Positions 1,508-26,095 of a DNA stretch of 41,475 nucleotides are shown here, in pieces; position 1 is the stretch's first letter; each line of letters opens with the position of its first letter. This DNA comes from an uncultured Candidatus Saccharibacteria bacterium (lineage in GTDB: Bacteria > Patescibacteriota > Saccharimonadia > Saccharimonadales > UBA7683), in NCBI GenBank assembly GCA_964448015.1, contig CAYUUV010000001.1, positions 13,147-54,621 of the forward strand. The letters run 5' to 3'. The notes under the pieces are model-generated. The model made no database searches, was not told the DNA's origin, and was given only the letters and a program-made list of their open reading frames with translations. A program made the position numbers and the translations under genes.

Positions 1508-1536
1508 TGTCATCCTGAACGTGCGTCAGAATCCCA
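1508..1536. repeat. Single palindromic unit of the TGTCAT...ATGACA family, in the gap 5' leader
   Basis: TGTCATCCTGAAcgtgcgTCAGAATCCCA. The reverse complement reads TGGGATTCTGA-cgcacg-TTCAGGATGACA, the same ends and stem style as the units at 17915-18175. Confidence 0.6.
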
Positions 1537-4916: not shown

Positions 4917-5348
4917 CACTAAGCTCTAAATCCTAAACAATTCCAAACATCAAATGTTCAAAATGAAAAACTATTTGCTCTTTTCTATAATAGCACCAAA
5001 TATCTTCATGAGCTCTGTCGCCTCATTGATCAGTGCATCTGGTGCTTTGAGTAGCCGAAGCCATAAAATACTTTCTTTGGCTTCCTTGCGGCAAATTTTA
5101 ATCCGCATAACAAAGTCTTTTTTACTCAGTGCTTCATTCGCCTCTATATAATTTGCAGCAACTGAACCGGAAGAACGTATCACTTGCTTCACATCTTCTT
5201 GTTCTAGTCTGGCTTTTTTGAGTGCCACATATTCTCTAACTAATACCGCGAAATTGTATGTCCTCGCTTCAAGATCAAACCGCCTCTTTTGATCATTTGT
5301 CATTGTGATTTTGGTTCTTGTTTAGAGTTTAGTATTTCGTGCTTAGGG
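4917..5348. repeat. Imperfect inverted repeats (arms about 4917-4949 and 5304-5348) bracketing the second four-helix-bundle gene
   Basis: Left arm CTAAGC-T-CTAAATCCTAAACAATTCCAAACA. The reverse complement of the right arm is CTAAGC-acgaaata-CTAAACTCTAAACAAGAACCAAAATCACA. About 22 of 27 core positions match, with one bulge. Confidence 0.6.
4971..5303 (-). CDS. Four-helix-bundle protein (23S rRNA intervening-sequence protein / Avd-like family)
   Basis: 110 aa. ...IRSSGSVAANYIEA....S..DF..R..I..KEA.E...WLRLL is the family pattern. Confidence 0.8.
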   Translation of the reverse strand: MTNDQKRRFDLEARTYNFAVLVREYVALKKARLEQEDVKQVIRSSGSVAANYIEANEALSKKDFVMRIKICRKEAKESILWLRLLKAPDALINEATELMKIFGAIIEKSK

Positions 5349-6408: not shown

Positions 6409-8187
6409 TTATGCGGCGATCTCGTAGTTCTTGAGCTTCTTCTTGGTGGTTTCGTCTGTCTTGTTTTGCAGCTTAAGAAGCTGTGCGTAAATACCGTTTG
6501 TTTTGGCAAGTTCGCTTGGCGCGCCCACTTCGTCAACTCGACCTTTTTTGAGGGTAACTATCTGATCAACCTCGGCGATGGTTGAAAGGCGATGCGCAAT
6601 AATCAGGGTCGTGCGGCCTTTCATGAGCTTTTCAAGTGCAGCCTGTACTTCGTGCTCTGATTTACTATCAAGGCTTGAGGTTGCTTCGTCTAAAATTAAA
6701 ATAGGCGCATCTTTGAGCAGTGCCCGTGCAATTGCAATTCGCTGTTTCTGTCCGCCAGAAAGCTTCATGCCTCGTTCGCCAACAAGTGTACCTAAACCGT
6801 CTGGCAATTTCTGAACGAACTCCCAGGCGTTAGCCGCTTTGGCAGCTTTTTCAATATCTTTGGTTGTTGCGTTTGGCCTTCCGTAGGCTATATTTTCTCT
6901 AACCGTACCGCTAAACAAGGTTGCCTCTTGAAACACCACGGCTATGTTTTCGCGCAAACTCTTCTGAGTGACAGTTGTAATATCCGTACCATCAATTAAA
7001 ATGTTACCTGATTGCGGATCATACAGCCGCAGCAACAGATTTGTGATGGTTGTTTTGCCTTCTCCACTTTCACCAACCAAGGCAAGTTTACTGCCCGCCC
7101 GCTGCTCAAAGTTCACGTTCTTTAAAACAGGCTGTTTGTTTTCATAGGCAAAACTAACGTCGTGAAATGTGACGGTGCCTTCAGAAACCTTTAGTCGTGA
7201 GGCACTTACAGCATCAATGATGTCCGGCTGCTCGCTCATTGCTGCAAAGAAATCCTTGCTGTCGGCAATTGCTCGTTGGGTATTATCAACCAACCAGCTC
7301 ATGCTGAAAAGTGGCAAACGAATCAAAACTCCGTACTGAATCAGCAGCACCGTTTCACCGACCGTGAATTTGCCATTGGCGGCTTCCCAGAATATATAGG
7401 CATACACAAAGCCGAAAATAACGTTCAGAACAAGTCGGCGGTAGACATCTTCTTTGTGCCACAAAAGCGACTGCGGATAGGTTGTCTTCACTGTTCTGTG
7501 CATCATTTTAGAAAAGAATGAAGCCTCAGATTTTTCAGAAGTATAACTTTTGGCGACTTTTATCTGGCCAACCACTTCAGCGAAGCGACCGCTGGCAATA
7601 TCGGTATTTTCATTAATATCTTGTTGATATTCCTGCCACTTTTTACTGGTTCGCGAGGTAAACCACAGCACTATTGGGTAGAGTGAAAGAAATAGCAGCG
7701 CAACAACCCAGCTATAACGCGCCACCACAACCAGAGTAAATACGGTACTTAAAATAAACTGTAAGAAGTTGTTACCGAACATATTTACGAACTGTGTCAG
7801 GCCGTAAATTGAACGGTTGAGCCGGCTGATAATCTTGCCTGTCAGTTCCGTTGAATAATAACGCTGACTGAGACTGAGCAGGTGTTCGTAGTACTTTGTC
7901 GAAAGAAAGTGCCGCAACTTGGCCGACATAATATCACCGTAATACCCTGAGATATTGCTGATAATGGTCGAACCAGCATCAGTCAAAAACAGTATGAAAA
8001 CGATCACCAGCACCGGCATCAATTCACTGTGACCACCAACAACACTGGGTAGTCGATCAATCGCCATTTTGGTTAAAATTGGCTGTGTTTGGTTCAGTAA
8101 AGCAATGGCCACCGAGCCAAGCGAAACGCCCAGGTAATACGGCCACAAATGCCGCGCAAATTTAAAAATCTGTCCAATACTCTTCAT
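6409..8187 (-). CDS. ABC transporter, fused permease/ATP-binding protein (exporter type)
   Basis: 592 aa. Six-helix N-terminal domain, Walker A GESGEGKTT, signature LSGGQKQR, Walker B ILILDEATS. The start overlaps the pheT stop by 1 nt (TAATG). Confidence 0.9.
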   Translation of the reverse strand: MKSIGQIFKFARHLWPYYLGVSLGSVAIALLNQTQPILTKMAIDRLPSVVGGHSELMPVLVIVFILFLTDAGSTIISNISGYYGDIMSAKLRHFLSTKYYEHLLSLSQRYYSTELTGKIISRLNRSIYGLTQFVNMFGNNFLQFILSTVFTLVVVARYSWVVALLFLSLYPIVLWFTSRTSKKWQEYQQDINENTDIASGRFAEVVGQIKVAKSYTSEKSEASFFSKMMHRTVKTTYPQSLLWHKEDVYRRLVLNVIFGFVYAYIFWEAANGKFTVGETVLLIQYGVLIRLPLFSMSWLVDNTQRAIADSKDFFAAMSEQPDIIDAVSASRLKVSEGTVTFHDVSFAYENKQPVLKNVNFEQRAGSKLALVGESGEGKTTITNLLLRLYDPQSGNILIDGTDITTVTQKSLRENIAVVFQEATLFSGTVRENIAYGRPNATTKDIEKAAKAANAWEFVQKLPDGLGTLVGERGMKLSGGQKQRIAIARALLKDAPILILDEATSSLDSKSEHEVQAALEKLMKGRTTLIIAHRLSTIAEVDQIVTLKKGRVDEVGAPSELAKTNGIYAQLLKLQNKTDETTKKKLKNYEIAA

Positions 8188-10922
8188 TACACTTGCTCCG
8201 CTTGTAGTTGCTGATGGGCATGCCAGCTCATCTGTTCAATCAGCTTGCTTATTTCATCTGTAGTTAGTGTACGCTCATGATGCGTGAAGGTAAATCGGAA
8301 TGATACGTTTTTACTTTCTTCTCCATCTTTTTGGAAGATGCTGAGTGGTCGCATCTGCCACTGAAAGTCAACTGATTGCAACACTTCTTTCATTACAGCT
8401 TCAAGCTGTGCGAATGATACATCACCGCGCACTCGCAGCGTGAGATCTTGTTCGGTTGAAGGATACTTTGAAAGCGGTTTGTACCCTTCAAGGTATCTGT
8501 TTTCTTCAAAGAAGCTTGGGCCGTCGAGCGCACATAATGCTCCAGCTGTATATTCTGGTAATTTGAAGGCTTCTGCAACCGATTCTTTGAACTCCCCGAC
8601 AATACCAATCATGCCACCTCGATCGGTTGCGTTCATAATATATGCTGAGCGTTTCAAATCGAAGGGTTGCAATGCTTGTAGTACATTGTCGTCATCAGCC
8701 GGCTCGAGTCTATACGATATACCAAGCTTATTGAGCAACTCATCTACCGTTTTGAGCATGCGAAAATATGGTGCTCCTGGTTGTACTTTTGCACTTGCGT
8801 AGACCATCTCAAGACTGTTAATTTCATCAGGAAGACCTGTTTCTTCGTCTATGACGGCCTTGTTGTGGCCTTTCCCAATCTCAAACAAGGTAAATTCATC
8901 ATGGCCAGCTTTTATGTTTGGATGTACTCTATCGAGCAAACTGGGCAATAAACTGAGTCTGTAGTATTGCAAATCTGGACTCAGCGCATTTCTAATGGTA
9001 AATGCCTGCTTAGAATCTTGGCCCGCTTTTTTCAAAAGATTACCATGCACAAAGCTATACCCGAGCAGTTCATTAGCTCCGGCTCGCGCTAGAATATGTC
9101 TAATTTCTGACTTTAATGATCTCAGCGAGTCTGGTGTGACCGGCTTGATGCTTCGCTTCGGCAAGGCCATCGGCAACTGGTTAAAGCCGTACAGGCGACC
9201 GATTTCTTCTACAATATCTTCTTTAATCTCAAGATCGGTGCGCCAGAATGGTGGTCGCACCTCGATAGGACCGGAGGCAACATGAGCGTCGATTTCGACA
9301 TTGTTCAGTAATGTCACGATCTCTTGGTCGGTGAATTTTGAGCCTAGACGATCGTTGATGAACTTTGTTTCAATTTCGATGTAGTTATCTTGATTATTGA
9401 TTATTGATTGTTGATTATTGCTATCGACAATGGTGCTGGCTTGTTTGGCTCCAGCTAGTTCTTCAAACATTGTGATAGTTTTTGTCATCACAGGCGGAAG
9501 CTGCGAGGCTGGCTGGCCTTTGGTGAAACGCGTGACGGCATCGGTGAAGATACCGTGGATCATGCTGGTTTTTCGGATGTTGTACATATCAAAAGTGGCG
9601 CACTCGAGCACCACTCGCGTGGTGTTTGCGTCAACTTCAGAATTGCCACCGCCCATCACACCGCCAAGTGCAATCGGACCATCAGAATTACAAATTAAGA
9701 CTGCATCTTTGTGTGGTTCAATTTCTTTGCCATCAAGCAGCGTCATTTTTTCACCAGCTTTTGGCTTTCTGACAATAACCTCTGCAGTTTTGTCATTCTC
9801 CGACTCGCTGCGCCCCGTGGAGTATTCTTCGGGGATCGGAGAATCTAGTTTATTACTGGATCCTCTGGTCAAGCCAGAGGATGACACTAGAGGGGTGCTG
9901 ATTTTATCAAAATCAAACACATGTAGCGGCTGCGCCGTAAGCAACATCATATAATTTGTAATATCAACCACGTTATTAATTGGCCGCACCCCGACTCGCT
10001 TCAAATAACTCTGCAACCAAATCGGACTCGGCGCAATCTTCACATCTTCCAAAACAACCGCCATATACCGCGGACACAGCGCGGGATCTTCTACGCTCAC
10101 GCTAAGAAGATCGGAGTTATGAGGTTTGAGTGATGAGGTATGAGTCTCGACATCTTCATCTTGATTCTTGATTCTTGACTCTTGACTCTGCGTATACCAG
10201 CTTGGGCTGGTAAAGCTTCGGTGTTGTATCCCCGCAATTTCCCGAGCCACACCAAGATGCCCAAAGCCATCAGGCCGGTGCGTAAACATCTTATTTTCAA
10301 TTTCTAAAATCGTATCATCAAGATCATACAAATCTTTGAATGGTGTCCCAACAATACTGTCATTCTCCGACTCGCTGCGCCCCGTGGAGTATTCTTCGGG
10401 GATCGGAGAATCTAGTGATTGACTGGATCCTCTGGTCAAGCCAGGGGATGACAAATCCTGCGGACCAATCTCCAAAATACCAGAATGATCATCTCCCAAC
10501 CCTAGTTCAGCAAGACTCGCCAACATGCCGTTACTGAGCTGACCACGTAAATCGCGAGCTTCAAGCACGAACAACTCTTTTTCACCATAACTCGCCGGCA
10601 CAATTGCACCCGGTGGAATCCACGCTACCAGTAACCCTTCGCGAACATTCGGCGCGCCGCAGACCACTTGTACATAGCCGTCTTCATCACGCGCGACATC
10701 CTTCACCGCGCCACCGTCATCAACCTTACAAAGTGAAAGCTTGTCGGCATTCGGATGCTTCTCACAGCTAACAACTTTCGCCACCACAACGCCTTCATAC
10801 TGCTTTGAAAGATCCGTCACACCCTCAATGCCGCCAAGCCGTTCCGTCGCCAGCTTCACCAACTCATCAGTAGGAATATCAACATCCGTAAACTGCTTCA
10901 CCCAATTTAAACTAACTTTCAT
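8187..10922 (-). CDS. pheT: Phenylalanine--tRNA ligase beta subunit, carrying several in-frame repeat insertions
   Basis: 911 aa. N-terminal tRNA-binding domain (KVVSCEKHPNADKLSLCKVD), B3/B4 and B5 regions, GVMGG motif. Confidence 0.95.
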   Translation of the reverse strand: MKVSLNWVKQFTDVDIPTDELVKLATERLGGIEGVTDLSKQYEGVVVAKVVSCEKHPNADKLSLCKVDDGGAVKDVARDEDGYVQVVCGAPNVREGLLVAWIPPGAIVPASYGEKELFVLEARDLRGQLSNGMLASLAELGLGDDHSGILEIGPQDLSSPGLTRGSSQSLDSPIPEEYSTGRSESENDSIVGTPFKDLYDLDDTILEIENKMFTHRPDGFGHLGVAREIAGIQHRSFTSPSWYTQSQESRIKNQDEDVETHTSSLKPHNSDLLSVSVEDPALCPRYMAVVLEDVKIAPSPIWLQSYLKRVGVRPINNVVDITNYMMLLTAQPLHVFDFDKISTPLVSSSGLTRGSSNKLDSPIPEEYSTGRSESENDKTAEVIVRKPKAGEKMTLLDGKEIEPHKDAVLICNSDGPIALGGVMGGGNSEVDANTTRVVLECATFDMYNIRKTSMIHGIFTDAVTRFTKGQPASQLPPVMTKTITMFEELAGAKQASTIVDSNNQQSIINNQDNYIEIETKFINDRLGSKFTDQEIVTLLNNVEIDAHVASGPIEVRPPFWRTDLEIKEDIVEEIGRLYGFNQLPMALPKRSIKPVTPDSLRSLKSEIRHILARAGANELLGYSFVHGNLLKKAGQDSKQAFTIRNALSPDLQYYRLSLLPSLLDRVHPNIKAGHDEFTLFEIGKGHNKAVIDEETGLPDEINSLEMVYASAKVQPGAPYFRMLKTVDELLNKLGISYRLEPADDDNVLQALQPFDLKRSAYIMNATDRGGMIGIVGEFKESVAEAFKLPEYTAGALCALDGPSFFEENRYLEGYKPLSKYPSTEQDLTLRVRGDVSFAQLEAVMKEVLQSVDFQWQMRPLSIFQKDGEESKNVSFRFTFTHHERTLTTDEISKLIEQMSWHAHQQLQAEQV
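9390..9424. repeat. Heptanucleotide tandem repeat (TTGATTA-like, about 5 units) inside pheT
   Basis: ttgatta ttgatta ttgattg ttgatta ttgctat. It encodes the low-complexity NNQQSIINNQD stretch, and the frame is preserved. Confidence 0.8.
9791..9886. repeat. 96-bp composite palindromic element (TGTCAT...ATGACA) in frame in pheT, copy 1
   Basis: TGTCATTCTCCGA...TCGGAGAATC, spacer, TGGATCCTCTGG-tcaag-CCAGAGGATGACA. It is 32 codons long and encodes SSSGLTRGSSNKLDSPIPEEYSTGRSESEND. Confidence 0.9.
10160..10187. repeat. Heptanucleotide tandem repeat (CTTGATT x2, CTTGACT x2) inside pheT
   Basis: Read directly. It lies in the low-complexity segment QSQESRIKNQDEDVETHTSSLKPHNS. The flanking G/T-rich stretch 10118-10146 is partly complementary to it. 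Confidence 0.8.
10358..10453. repeat. 96-bp composite palindromic element (TGTCAT...ATGACA) in frame in pheT, copy 2
   Basis: 91 of 96 nt identical to copy 1 by direct comparison. It encodes SSPGLTRGSSQSLDSPIPEEYSTGRSESEND. Confidence 0.9.
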
Positions 10923-15569: not shown

Positions 15570-16070
15570 ATGGCGAAAGATTCTTCATTTGATATAGTTT
15601 CAGATTACGACATAGCAAAAGTAACAAACGCTGTTGAATCGGCGCAGCGTGAAATTAGTACGCGCTACGATTTCAAAGGCACAAAAGCGGGCCTAGAGTT
15701 CACTGACGGCAACAAAACTGGCGTGACTATTACTGGCGACAACAAATTCCACCTTGATAGCATTGTTGATATTTTAAGAAAGAAGTTAGCAACTTCTGGA
15801 GTAAGCCAGAAAATTTTAGATACCAGCAAAGAACCCACCGAAAATAACATGCAGATGAAGTGGGAACTAGCATTTGTAAAAGGCTTAGATCAAGAAAAAG
15901 CCAAAAAGGTTACAAAACTAATCCGCGATACCTACCCCAAAGTAAAACCACAGGTTCAAGGTGAAGAAATCCGCGTCAGCTCCCCAAAGCGAGACGAACT
16001 GCAAGCAGTTATGCAACTTCTGCGCGAAGCCGACTTCGACTTCCCGCTTGAGTTCACAAACTACCGCTAA
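15570..16070 (+). CDS. YajQ-family nucleotide-binding protein (UPF0234)
   Basis: MAKDSSFDIVS..D...V.NAV..A.REI..RYDFKG... gives full-length family similarity. Start set to ATG 15570. Confidence 0.9.
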   Translation: MAKDSSFDIVSDYDIAKVTNAVESAQREISTRYDFKGTKAGLEFTDGNKTGVTITGDNKFHLDSIVDILRKKLATSGVSQKILDTSKEPTENNMQMKWELAFVKGLDQEKAKKVTKLIRDTYPKVKPQVQGEEIRVSSPKRDELQAVMQLLREADFDFPLEFTNYR

Positions 16071-16103: not shown

Positions 16104-16164
16104 TGTCATTCTCGACCTGATCGAGAACCTAGCTTTATAGATTCCTGCCTTCGCAGGAATGACA
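16104..16164. repeat. 61-bp composite palindromic element (TGTCAT...ATGACA family)
   Basis: TGTCATTCTCGA-cctga-TCGAGAA, spacer, ATTCCTGC-cttc-GCAGGAATGACA. The two-hairpin architecture matches the 96-bp pheT elements. Confidence 0.75.
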
Positions 16165-16338
16165 TTTGGAAAGGTTTTGAGGCTCAGGTTGATTCACGTA
16201 CGGGGAGAAAAGATTTTATGTCGGTCTTTGATAGAAAAGTCGGCAAATAAAAAGGCCTTCCGCTGTGTGGCCTAAAAACCACCCGCCGAAGGTCTTGTAG
16301 AGATTATACCTTGTTCGAATATAAGAATGAAAGCATGA

Positions 16339-16440
16339 ATCCGCGTCAGCTCCCCAAAACGAGATAAACTCAAGACAGTTATGCAACTCCTTCGCGAAGC
16401 CGACTTTGACTTCCCGCTAGAGTTCACCAATTATAAGTAG
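16339..16440 (+). pseudogene. Displaced, diverged copy of the last 33 codons of yajQ
   Basis: 102 nt aligns without gaps to 15969-16070 (84 of 102 identical by hand count). It translates to IRVSSPKRDKLKTVMQLLREADFDFPLEFTNYK* and is preceded in frame by TGA. Confidence 0.75.
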
Positions 16441-17914: not shown

Positions 17915-18175
17915 ATTGGATCCTGAATCTAGTTCAGGATGACAAGCTGCGCTTGAATGAGTGGACTGGATTCCCGCGGTTCGTCTGAGCTCACCGTCGA
18001 TGACCTTCGCGGGAATGACGGAGGTTGATTGATTGGATCCCGTGTCAAAGCACGGGATGACACCCCCTCACTAAAGCTACGGGGTGCAGGCGACATGGGT
18101 TGCATAGACTGGATGCCCGCCGGAGTTGATGTTGAACTCGATTCAGCGCGGGAATGACGGCCGCGGGATTCGTTT
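17915..18175. repeat. Cluster of at least 4 palindromic units of the TGGAT..stem-loop..ATGAC family
   Basis: Unit 17915-17944 is ATTGGATCCTGAA-tctag-TTCAGGATGACA. Unit 17966-18019 is CTGGATTCCCGCG...CGCGGGAATGAC. Unit 18032-18062 is ATTGGATCCCGTG-tcaaag-CACGGGATGACA. Unit 18109-18158 is CTGGATGCCCGC...GCGGGAATGAC. There is also a CACCCC/GGGGTG hairpin. Confidence 0.8.
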
Positions 18176-25387: not shown

Positions 25388-26095
25388 TTAATATTCTATG
25401 TTAGTGTAGCCGTCGAAGTAGTCGTATTTGATTTGGGTTCGGGGGAAACCTTCGGCGACGAGACCTTCGCCAAGGGTTTCTGAGAATTTTTGGGAGCCGG
25501 CGAGATAAATGATGTACTGTTTGATATCTGGGATATCTTTTTTGAGCTGCTCGAGCGTTAATCTCACGTCTGAATATTCTTGAAGTAAGCACGTTGGGTC
25601 TGTCTGCTCAGCTTGGTGGAGTTCGCTAAGAAACGGGCGTTTTTCGTCTTTACCAGCGTAGAGCAGCGTTGCGTTGATTGGTTGGTGTTTGTGAAGACGG
25701 TCGCGGATAATGCTGAGATAAGGCGTGATGCCGATGCCGCCGGCGATGAAGAGACGCCTTAAATTGATTGGATCCTGAATCGAGTTCAGGATGACACCAG
25801 GGAGGCTATAAGTAAAGTCGCCGCCAAGTTGGTCGGCCTCTATTTCATCGCCAGCTTCTAGTAGTTGTAACTTCTGTTTGAAATGACTCGCGCCACTAAT
25901 TGTTGTGAACTGTAGAAGCGGTTCGTGCGGCGCAGAAGCAATAGTCAAAAGCCGGTCGGAAACCGCCGGTGGCACGCCGGGCATAGACAGATTCAAATAC
26001 TGCCCAGCCACAAAGGTAACCGGTTCAAGTGGTTCAAAAAAATACGACCACACCTCGCCTACTTCATGCTGCTTTTTTACAAATAATAACCTCAT
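25388..26095 (-). CDS. Ferredoxin-NADP reductase-like FAD/NAD(P)-binding oxidoreductase
   Basis: 235 aa. RLLTIAS (RxYS-like FAD motif) and GGIGITP NAD(P) motif. Carries a 10-codon repeat insertion. Confidence 0.75.
   Translation of the reverse strand: MRLLFVKKQHEVGEVWSYFFEPLEPVTFVAGQYLNLSMPGVPPAVSDRLLTIASAPHEPLLQFTTISGASHFKQKLQLLEAGDEIEADQLGGDFTYSLPGVILNSIQDPINLRRLFIAGGIGITPYLSIIRDRLHKHQPINATLLYAGKDEKRPFLSELHQAEQTDPTCLLQEYSDVRLTLEQLKKDIPDIKQYIIYLAGSQKFSETLGEGLVAEGFPRTQIKYDYFDGYTNIEY
25767..25796. repeat. 30-bp palindromic unit in frame inside the oxidoreductase gene
   Basis: ATTGGATCCTGAATCGAGTTCAGGATGACA is 29 of 30 nt identical to the intergenic unit at 17915-17944. It encodes VILNSIQDPI. 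Confidence 0.9.

Follow-up and report, generated by a model that had tools for sequence, protein, structure and literature searches.

The window analysed here, a stretch of 41,475 nucleotides (nt) from the Saccharibacteria contig CAYUUV010000001.1 (all coordinates without a label are window positions), contains two 96-bp palindromic segments inside pheT, the gene of the beta subunit of phenylalanyl-tRNA synthetase (PheRS). It is very probable that both segments are copies of one TGTC-tagged heterodimer of repetitive extragenic palindromic (REP) units with a nested hairpin, which would have been added to an ancestral PheT with short loops and which would be read through. The host open reading frame (ORF) contains all five Pfam domains of PheT (tRNA_bind, B3_4, B5, tRNA_synthFbeta and FDX-ACB), its top match in the Protein Data Bank is E. 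coli PheT (3pco_B, 4.8e-79), and its closest PheT homologues are at most 70% identical, the named ones being Saccharibacteria/Saccharimonadales. The gene and the parts of the two inserts are as follows.

8187..10922, minus strand: pheT, phenylalanyl-tRNA synthetase beta subunit, 911 amino acids (aa); host gene, intact through both inserts
10358..10453, minus strand: REP dimer at PheT site 1 (aa ~157-188, after GILEI, end of the tRNA_bind domain); encodes SSPGLTRGSSQSLDSPIPEEYSTGRSESENDS
9791..9886, minus strand: REP dimer at PheT site 2 (aa ~346-377, within the editing domain B3_4, following FDFDKIS); encodes SSSGLTRGSSNKLDSPIPEEYSTGRSESENDK
9791..9847, minus strand: unit 1 of copy A, with tag TGTC, 9-bp stem ATTCTCCGA/TCGGAGAAT, 32-nt loop and tail CTA (strict scan, fold)
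10358-10414: unit 1 of copy B, equivalent
9807..9833 (+/-2 nt): 27-nt segment nested inside the unit 1 loop, where it forms a hairpin of its own, CCCCG...CGGGG (copy comparison, fold)
10374-10400: nested 27-nt segment, equivalent in copy B
9857..9886, plus strand: unit 2 of copy A, with tail TGG (opposite strand CCA), 9-bp stem ATCCTCTGG/CCAGAGGAT, loop TCAAG and tag GACA
10424-10453: unit 2 of copy B, equivalent, with one stem mismatch

The repeat pair and its reading frame

The segments at 9791-9886 and 10358-10453 form the one 96-nt direct-repeat family given by the repeat finder, and direct comparison agrees with an earlier note on this DNA, made from the sequence alone, that had described them: 91/96 nt are identical (95%), both copies have TGTCAT at the 5' end and ATGACA at the 3' end, and both contain the hairpins ATTCTCCGA...TCGGAGAAT and ATCC(T/C)CTGG-TCAAG-CCAG(A/G)GGAT. 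Of the five differences, one falls in a stem and the other four in the spacer that separates the hairpins. On the coding strand the first half reads TGTC, ATCCTCTGG, CTTGA, CCAGAGGAT, CCA and an 8-nt stretch differing between the copies, and the second half CTA, GATTCTCCGA, the 32-nt loop, TCGGAGAAT and GACA. Each copy is built of two different hairpin units in inverted arrangement, with the four-base tags outward, the CCA/CTA tails inward and about 11-15 nt between the two stems.

The in-frame position claimed in the same note was borne out by offsets, phase and translation: the copies start at gene offsets 469 and 1036, each in codon phase 1, each spans 32 codons, and their spacing of 567 nt equals 189 codons. 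Three of the six frames of the element are open, and in the orientation used one of three; because of the 32-codon length, and because the used frame is the only open one in that orientation, the inserts would be read through. The encoded peptides are near-identical, hydrophobic residues make up 3/32, and tryptic peptides such as GSSQSLDSPIPEEYSTGR and SESENDSIVGTPFK are expected if the inserts are translated. A reading as intein or intron was rejected, as the segments are 96 nt long, have no catalytic motifs and are read through in their only open frame. For the copies as single-stranded DNA, folding gives -22.8 kcal/mol (z = -5.6) and -20.5 kcal/mol (z = -3.4), with dinucleotide shuffles as the reference; for the coding-strand RNA it gives -38.7 and -33.5 kcal/mol (z = -3.8 and -2.6).

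Position of the inserts in PheT

The survey comprised the 120 best PheT homologues, in which site 1 could be read in 76 and site 2 in 77, together with an alignment of 26 orthologues. The usual orthologue has 6 aa after GILEI at site 1 (e.g., EEDVQP) and 8 aa after FDFDK at site 2 (e.g., VAKNGKAE), compared with 39 and 41 aa in the window. Both segments coincide with gaps in the HMMER alignment to the E. coli structure (query 153-187 against residues 137-140 of 3pco_B at site 1, and query 344-381 against residues 274-276 at site 2), and both are also unaligned against the S. aureus PheT structure. AlphaFold2 gives both inserts no secondary structure, with a predicted local distance difference test (pLDDT) score of about 24-35, and the site 2 insert (346-376, pLDDT <50) is flanked by the well-modelled strands 342-344 and 378-385. 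Both inserts are therefore predicted to be disordered, and these comparisons support the expectation that they would prove to be lineage-specific insertions and would fall in surface loops.

A third stretch of PheT is also variable in length: 10114-10189 (aa ~245-270) contains the 7-nt unit TCTTGAC, repeated in tandem 4.4 times, and a 14-nt repeat of 2.3 copies, and differs by up to ~20 aa among orthologues. In one of these proteins (P0006) this stretch includes an ISPQGRDD motif, which looks REP-derived.

Other occupants of the same two sites

Among the 120 homologues, about 20 have 15-72 extra aa at site 1 and about 9 have extra aa at site 2, and the inserts at the two sites comprise at least five unrelated peptide types. 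At the DNA level the inserts of eight related loci are likewise REP dimers. A 69-nt form of the window element occupies site 1 of L002; in L003 and L004, two independent assemblies, it occupies site 2. Comparison of the coding-strand DNA of the L002 and L003 forms showed that they have no nested 27-nt segment. Site 2 of L130 holds a related dimer whose stem has undergone a compensatory change, dimers with ATCCCAGC, ATTCCTGC, ATTCCCGC or ATCCCTGC stems occupy both sites of L006 and site 1 of L131, and L132 and L133 hold decayed dimers. The window and L002 have the same site 1 junctions, and they share the right flank GTATTGT with L131, although the dimer of L131 is a different one. In a neighbour-joining tree the insert-bearing PheTs are scattered among those with empty sites, with P0007 nested in an empty-site clade. 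The empty sites read GAAGAGGATGTTCAGCCG and GTAGCAAAAAATGGTAAAGCG, and no evident motif is common to the two.

The two PheT sites are evidently re-used by different dimers across lineages, which is newly documented here. The earlier note had set its reading against homologous segments of ordinary protein-like divergence at the same positions; segments do stand there in some orthologues, but these are the same or other REP dimers, that is, cases of site re-use, and their divergence is not of the ordinary protein-like kind.

The recurrence of REP dimers at the same two sites in many lineages could also mean that the loops have been recruited for a function, either in the protein, as new surface loops on PheRS (partner binding, modulation of editing) or as RNA or DNA hairpins in the pheST transcript (processing, stability, pausing, recombination hot spots). 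It would fit with this that the pheT copies are the sole strict units in several related loci, that the compensatory stem change in L130 preserves the hairpin, that the coding-strand RNA fold reaches -38.7 kcal/mol (z = -3.8), and that pheT is mosaic around the element, in line with the recombination hypothesis for the dRS3 repeats (PMC1797815). However, most orthologues have no insert, so it is not needed for PheRS function; the peptides are wholly different among insert types, the dimers are decayed in L132 and L133 and copy B has a stem mismatch; the inserts are predicted disordered; and persistence is also expected from the fact that imprecise deletion in an essential gene is lethal. We regard recruitment as unlikely.

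Recombination and the mobilising enzyme

The arrival of the 69-nt element in L002 can be traced, from comparison with the related locus L005, to a short recombination tract. The two are 93-99% identical along pheT and ~90-97% over most of the shared locus (85% in pheS), yet directly left of the site 1 element only 29/51 positions are identical over 51 nt, against 94-95% further upstream, and to the right identity recovers after ~90 nt. As these diverged flanks show, the element entered L002 on a ~250-300-nt patch of a foreign pheT allele, which points to homologous recombination and not to transposition. The lineage of the window was considered as direct donor of the patch and rejected, since identity between the flank and the window is 80%, no higher than background.

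More generally, pheT is strongly mosaic among the window, L002, L003, L005 and L006 (the window and L006 range from 38% to 91% in 120-nt windows), and L002 and L005 differ in a second diverged tract, at gene nt ~780-1560, which contains no element.

Within the window, only the two pheT copies share the nested 27-nt hairpin, and same-position copies in other lineages have none. As this hairpin is a shared derived character, we infer that both copies stem from one recent source, by copying or gene conversion between sites 567 nt apart.

Independent de novo insertion at two preferred targets in pheT, by an enzyme of the Y1 RAYT-like or IS110/Piv type and with neither a resident REP nor recombination, has some observations in its favour, namely the patchy presence on the tree, the site 1 junctions that the window shares with L002, the GTATTGT flank beside three different inserts, and a Y1_Tnp gene directly after pheT in L131. 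This gene (L131 12620-13335, 187 aa, IS200/RAYT-like, with the HUH motif PNHFHLL) lies between pheT and the ATP-binding cassette (ABC) transporter gene, and is flanked on both sides by an identical palindrome, TTTCCAAGGCCTGGCCTTGGAAA, which is unrelated to the TGTC units and was not found in the window. That palindrome counts against the reading. So does the L002 element, whose arrival brought along no less than 140 nt of diverged pheT sequence beside it and hence means recombination, not transposition; furthermore, the two empty sites have no evident common motif, and REPs of the CGTC-tagged type have no dedicated transposase (PMC3733652). Independent insertion is unlikely in our judgement.

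Pfam scans of 43 window ORFs, which covered the large non-overlapping ones, gave no transposase domain. A RAYT as mobiliser found no support, as the window has none and the L131 gene has its own, different flanking palindrome; the latter fits the published opinion that no RAYT belongs to the CGTC REPs. As an observation in its own right, the L131 Y1_Tnp gene with its flanking palindromes represents a REPtron-like unit in a Saccharibacterium.

Dispersed units in the window and beyond

A strict scan for units (stem base ATTC or ATCC, stem of at least 7 bp, then GAC(A/G)) found 10 in the window and 0 in 50 single-base shuffles, which do not keep dinucleotide content. Four of them are in pheT, three in an intergenic array, and one each in a 61-bp dimer, upstream of gap and in a ferredoxin-reductase-like ORF. 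The places outside pheT are listed here.

16104..16164: intergenic 61-bp REP dimer, TGTC tags outward, CTA/TAG tails inward, 34 nt past the yajQ stop; fold z = -5.65
17917..18159, plus strand: intergenic array of four same-orientation units, upstream of an MGH1-like glycoside hydrolase gene
25772..25796, plus strand: single REP unit, in frame within a ferredoxin-reductase-like ORF (25388-26095, minus strand)
1508..1532, minus strand: weak or decayed single unit directly upstream of the ribosome-binding site of gap (GAPDH)

The array is made of units at 17920-17944, 17970-18020 and 18037-18062 and a degenerate one at ~18113-18159. The unit at 25772-25796 encodes VILNSIQDPI, at the junction just before the NAD-binding domain; 12 distant homologues have no such segment, and in the closest one (63% identity) another insert stands at this place. 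Dispersal is thus supported within the 41-kb window, as units built in the same way occur between genes and, in frame, inside a second gene. With regard to the intergenic relatives that the earlier note had named, the 16104-16164 dimer and the units within 17915-18175 are real, and the one at 1508 (1508-1532) is real but weak, with a fold no better than that of shuffles. Matches to GRATGACA at 1821, 20439 and 31738 have no hairpin and were put down to chance.

The 61-bp dimer lies between two copies of the end of yajQ (DUF520), as the last ~96 nt of this gene (15968-16063) recur 370 nt downstream at 16338-16433 with 86% identity. By eye the second copy has an open frame with several amino-acid replacements, outside the listed ORFs, and it looks like a 3' end left by allele replacement beside the REP.

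In collections of genomes and metagenome contigs, the exact unit 1 stem has three genuine loci, all outside the Saccharibacteria, in L007 (3903-3954, a metagenome-assembled genome (MAG) of WOR-3) and in the metagenome contigs L008 (279-330) and L009 (1129-1210), each with the outer stem ATTCTCCGATC...GAGTCGGAGAATGACG. The loops of L007 and L008 enclose a nested hairpin (L008: CCCCTGGTCAAGCCAGAGG) whose sequence is the same, or almost the same, as that of the window unit 2 stem; hairpin modules appear to be shared and recombined across phyla. A further exact-stem match, in L001, lies inside a recO-like gene and was dismissed as chance. The hairpin 2 pattern was found at at least 120 loci in other phyla, and the dRS3-type pattern GGATTCCCGC-N4-GCGGGAATGAC also at at least 120 loci in many phyla, including one Nanoarchaeota MAG; the hosts among the matches listed include Rhizobium, Agrobacterium, Brevundimonas, Neisseria, Chloroflexota and Patescibacteria.

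Relation to known repeat families

The CGTC-tagged REPs, families CGTC-1 to CGTC-4, were described by Di Nocera, De Gregorio and Rocco in 2013 (PMC3733652). According to these authors, a unit consists of an unpaired CGTC tag (often TGTC, or CCTC), a stem of 8-9 bp that starts with A, T, a loop of 4-5 nt and a CCA tail, and most units form inverted dimers, many of them heterodimers. CGTC-1 equals the Neisseria dRS3, and CGTC-1 and CGTC-4 equal the Rickettsia RPE-6 and RPE-4. Intragenic dimers encode 20-30 aa and sometimes occur twice in one ORF, including tRNA synthetase genes; the supplementary host list has glycyl- and isoleucyl-tRNA synthetases and no PheT, and the Saccharibacteria are not among the five phyla covered (PMC3733652).

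The units of the window are assigned, by their tag, stem, tail and dimer arrangement, to this CGTC/TGTC-tagged REP superfamily. Each of the 10 strict units closes with GAC(A/G), read as (T/C)GTC from the opposite strand, and the pheT dimers read TGTC...GACA at both ends. Stems are 7-9 bp, all with ATTC/ATCC pairing to GAAT/GGAT, although the first four bases were demanded by the scan and are not independent evidence; folding recovers the unit stems. As the triplet beside the stem, 6 units have TGG (opposite strand CCA), 3 have TAG and 1 has GGG. Five units have loops of 4-5 nt and two of 6-7 nt, the unit at 17970-18020 has 29 nt, and unit 1 of both pheT copies has 32 nt because of the nested 27-nt hairpin; the 69-nt element of L002 and L003 has the canonical 5-nt loop. 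Three dimers have their tags outward (two in pheT, and 16104-16164), in addition to the one four-unit array and two singletons. The likeness to CGTC REPs therefore extends over the tag, the AT-starting stem, the tail, the inverted heterodimers, coding dimers twice per ORF and the lack of a flanking transposase. Unlike the published members, the window element has a host from the Saccharibacteria, within the Patescibacteria or candidate phyla radiation (CPR), lies in pheT and has a 27-nt hairpin nested in its loop, and the re-use of the same two loops by different dimers across lineages is likewise a feature of the window and its relatives.

The palindromic elements of Rickettsia (RPE; Ogata et al. 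2000, after the summary in PMC10969869), which the earlier note had proposed as the closest precedent, turned out to be closer than first thought, since the units fit the superfamily that PMC3733652 equates with RPE-4 and RPE-6; the kinship depends on that equation. As far as that summary describes them, RPE resemble the present case in being palindromic repeats in frame in housekeeping ORFs, read through and placed at positions compatible with the fold. The same trait of in-frame insertion in unrelated genes is seen in the window, with two cases in pheT and one in the ferredoxin-reductase-like gene, in loops or gaps. They differ in that, in the same summary, the classical RPE-1 is ~150 bp and restricted to Rickettsia, while the host here is an epibiotic member of the CPR and not an alphaproteobacterium. 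The literature searched here yielded no report of RPE in Saccharibacteria, nor of typical REP-derived peptide strings.

With dRS3 the window shares the unit design (C)GTC-ATTCCC-N8-GGGAAT-CCAG, which is seen at 16141-16164 and 17970-18020 and is similar in N. lactamica copies, and the mosaic recombination around the pheT element in L002 is a further likeness, as dRS3 has been proposed to associate with recombination mosaics (PMC1797815). The array of four units at 17917-18159 looks similar to a small NIME array; NIME arrays are intergenic and have 20-bp ATTCCC-N8-GGGAAT units with 50-150-bp RS spacers (PMC1797815). The pheT units are different, with ATTCTC and ATCCTC stems, 11-15-nt spacers and a coding position, and their membership in dRS3/NIME was rejected on these grounds; only 17970-18020 in the window carries ATTCCCGC...GCGGGAAT. 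As a side remark, NIME arrays were unseen outside Neisseria according to a 2007 paper; the dRS3-type units stand at at least 120 loci in many phyla.

The REPIN/RAYT system (Bertels and Rainey 2011, PMC3116915) is similar in its inverted REP doublet, which can fold as one larger structure and is non-autonomous. It differs in its tag (GTAG, against TGTC here), the two stems here are unlike, and no RAYT flanked by TGTC units was seen; membership was rejected because of the tag, the stems and the lack of a Y1_Tnp gene in the window.

Of the earlier description of the inserts as copies of an element like a MITE (a miniature transposable element with inverted repeats) or a REP rather than native PheT sequence, the REP part held, in the form of a heterodimer, and the MITE part fits poorly. 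The flanks CAGGATT|...|GTATTGT and CCTCTAG|...|AAACTGC show no target-site duplication, only the 6 nt TGTCAT/ATGACA are inverted at the ends, and no parent insertion sequence was found.

Lineage-specific insertions are known in CPR proteins and rRNAs, and a single contig has exactly the window PheT protein in the homologue search, so the segments could be imagined as native expansion segments of PheT with coincidental palindromes, or as an assembly artefact. This idea is highly improbable and is largely refuted: the two segments are 91/96 identical in DNA and have the hairpin design of the intergenic copies, the same element stands at the same sites in independent assemblies (JGI, Logan), the units match a cross-phylum repeat family, and the reading frame is intact across both copies.

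Interpretation

In the explanation that we favour, an ancestral PheT with short loops at both positions received copies of the REP dimer, which would now form two disordered hydrophilic loops of 32 aa, one at the end of tRNA_bind and the other in the turn between strands of the B3/B4 editing domain, and PheRS would tolerate both. Through its conserved tag, stem base and tail, a REP already in place may then serve as a landing pad or recombination substrate at which hairpins are exchanged at fixed sites, and spread between lineages would proceed through homologous recombination of taken-up DNA.

Several points weigh against this explanation and limit it. Translation of the inserts is predicted from the sequence, and so is their tolerance; the unit count covers 41 kb of the genome only, and copy number and mobilising enzyme were judged within the window. 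The AlphaFold2 model is modest (mean pLDDT 66.8, from a 26-sequence alignment), and residues 109-195, all around site 1, are poorly modelled. The stem ATTCTCCGATC..GAGTCGGAGAATGAC occurs at only 3 loci in the genome and metagenome contig collections, none of them in other Saccharibacteria genomes there. In L002, L003, L006, L130 and L131 (3-22 kb each) strict units are found only inside pheT, which is odd for a freely dispersing element, and the pheT copies could thus persist by selection or recombination and not by ongoing transposition.

A more far-reaching idea is that the PheT loops are exchange sites as such, at which a recombinase that recognises the conserved tag, stem base and tail, or REP-nucleated recombination with taken-up DNA, would swap hairpin cassettes into and out of an essential gene across the Saccharibacteria lineages. 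We hold this to be a speculative and improbable extension of the REP-dimer explanation.

Other features of the window

The gene order common to the window and the related loci is pheS, small hydrolase genes, pheT, ABC transporter and FKBP. Two genes of 23S rRNA-intervening-sequence proteins (PF05635, bAvd-like four-helix bundle) lie within 5 kb at 61-429 and 4971-5303, both on the minus strand, and the related loci have one PF05635 gene at the syntenic position. The window contains no tRNA genes and no Rfam family at gathering score; a match to FtrB was dismissed as sub-threshold (23 bits, cut-off 66).

Conclusions

The class of element is already known, as small palindromic repeats including RPE-4, RPE-6 and dRS3 have been described, also as dimers inside ORFs; what is new here is the host phylum, the host gene, the documented re-use of two loops and one traced lateral transfer. 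Palindromic repeats in frame within housekeeping genes, a phenomenon known best in Rickettsia, are thereby extended to the Saccharibacteria, which have reduced genomes. The two loops of one essential enzyme offer a natural series, which ranges from empty sites over the 69-nt form and the 96-nt form, whose loop has the nested hairpin, to dimers with other stems and decayed ones; it is suited to questions about the spread of such repeats and about their tolerance by proteins. Those who annotate CPR proteins or build trees from them are hereby warned that "expansion segments" of single lineages may be repeat DNA. If the PheT loops were indeed exchange sites, REPs would drive mosaic evolution and create new surface loops in core proteins of the CPR, and this would give a first handle on the movement of CGTC REPs, which have no known transposase.

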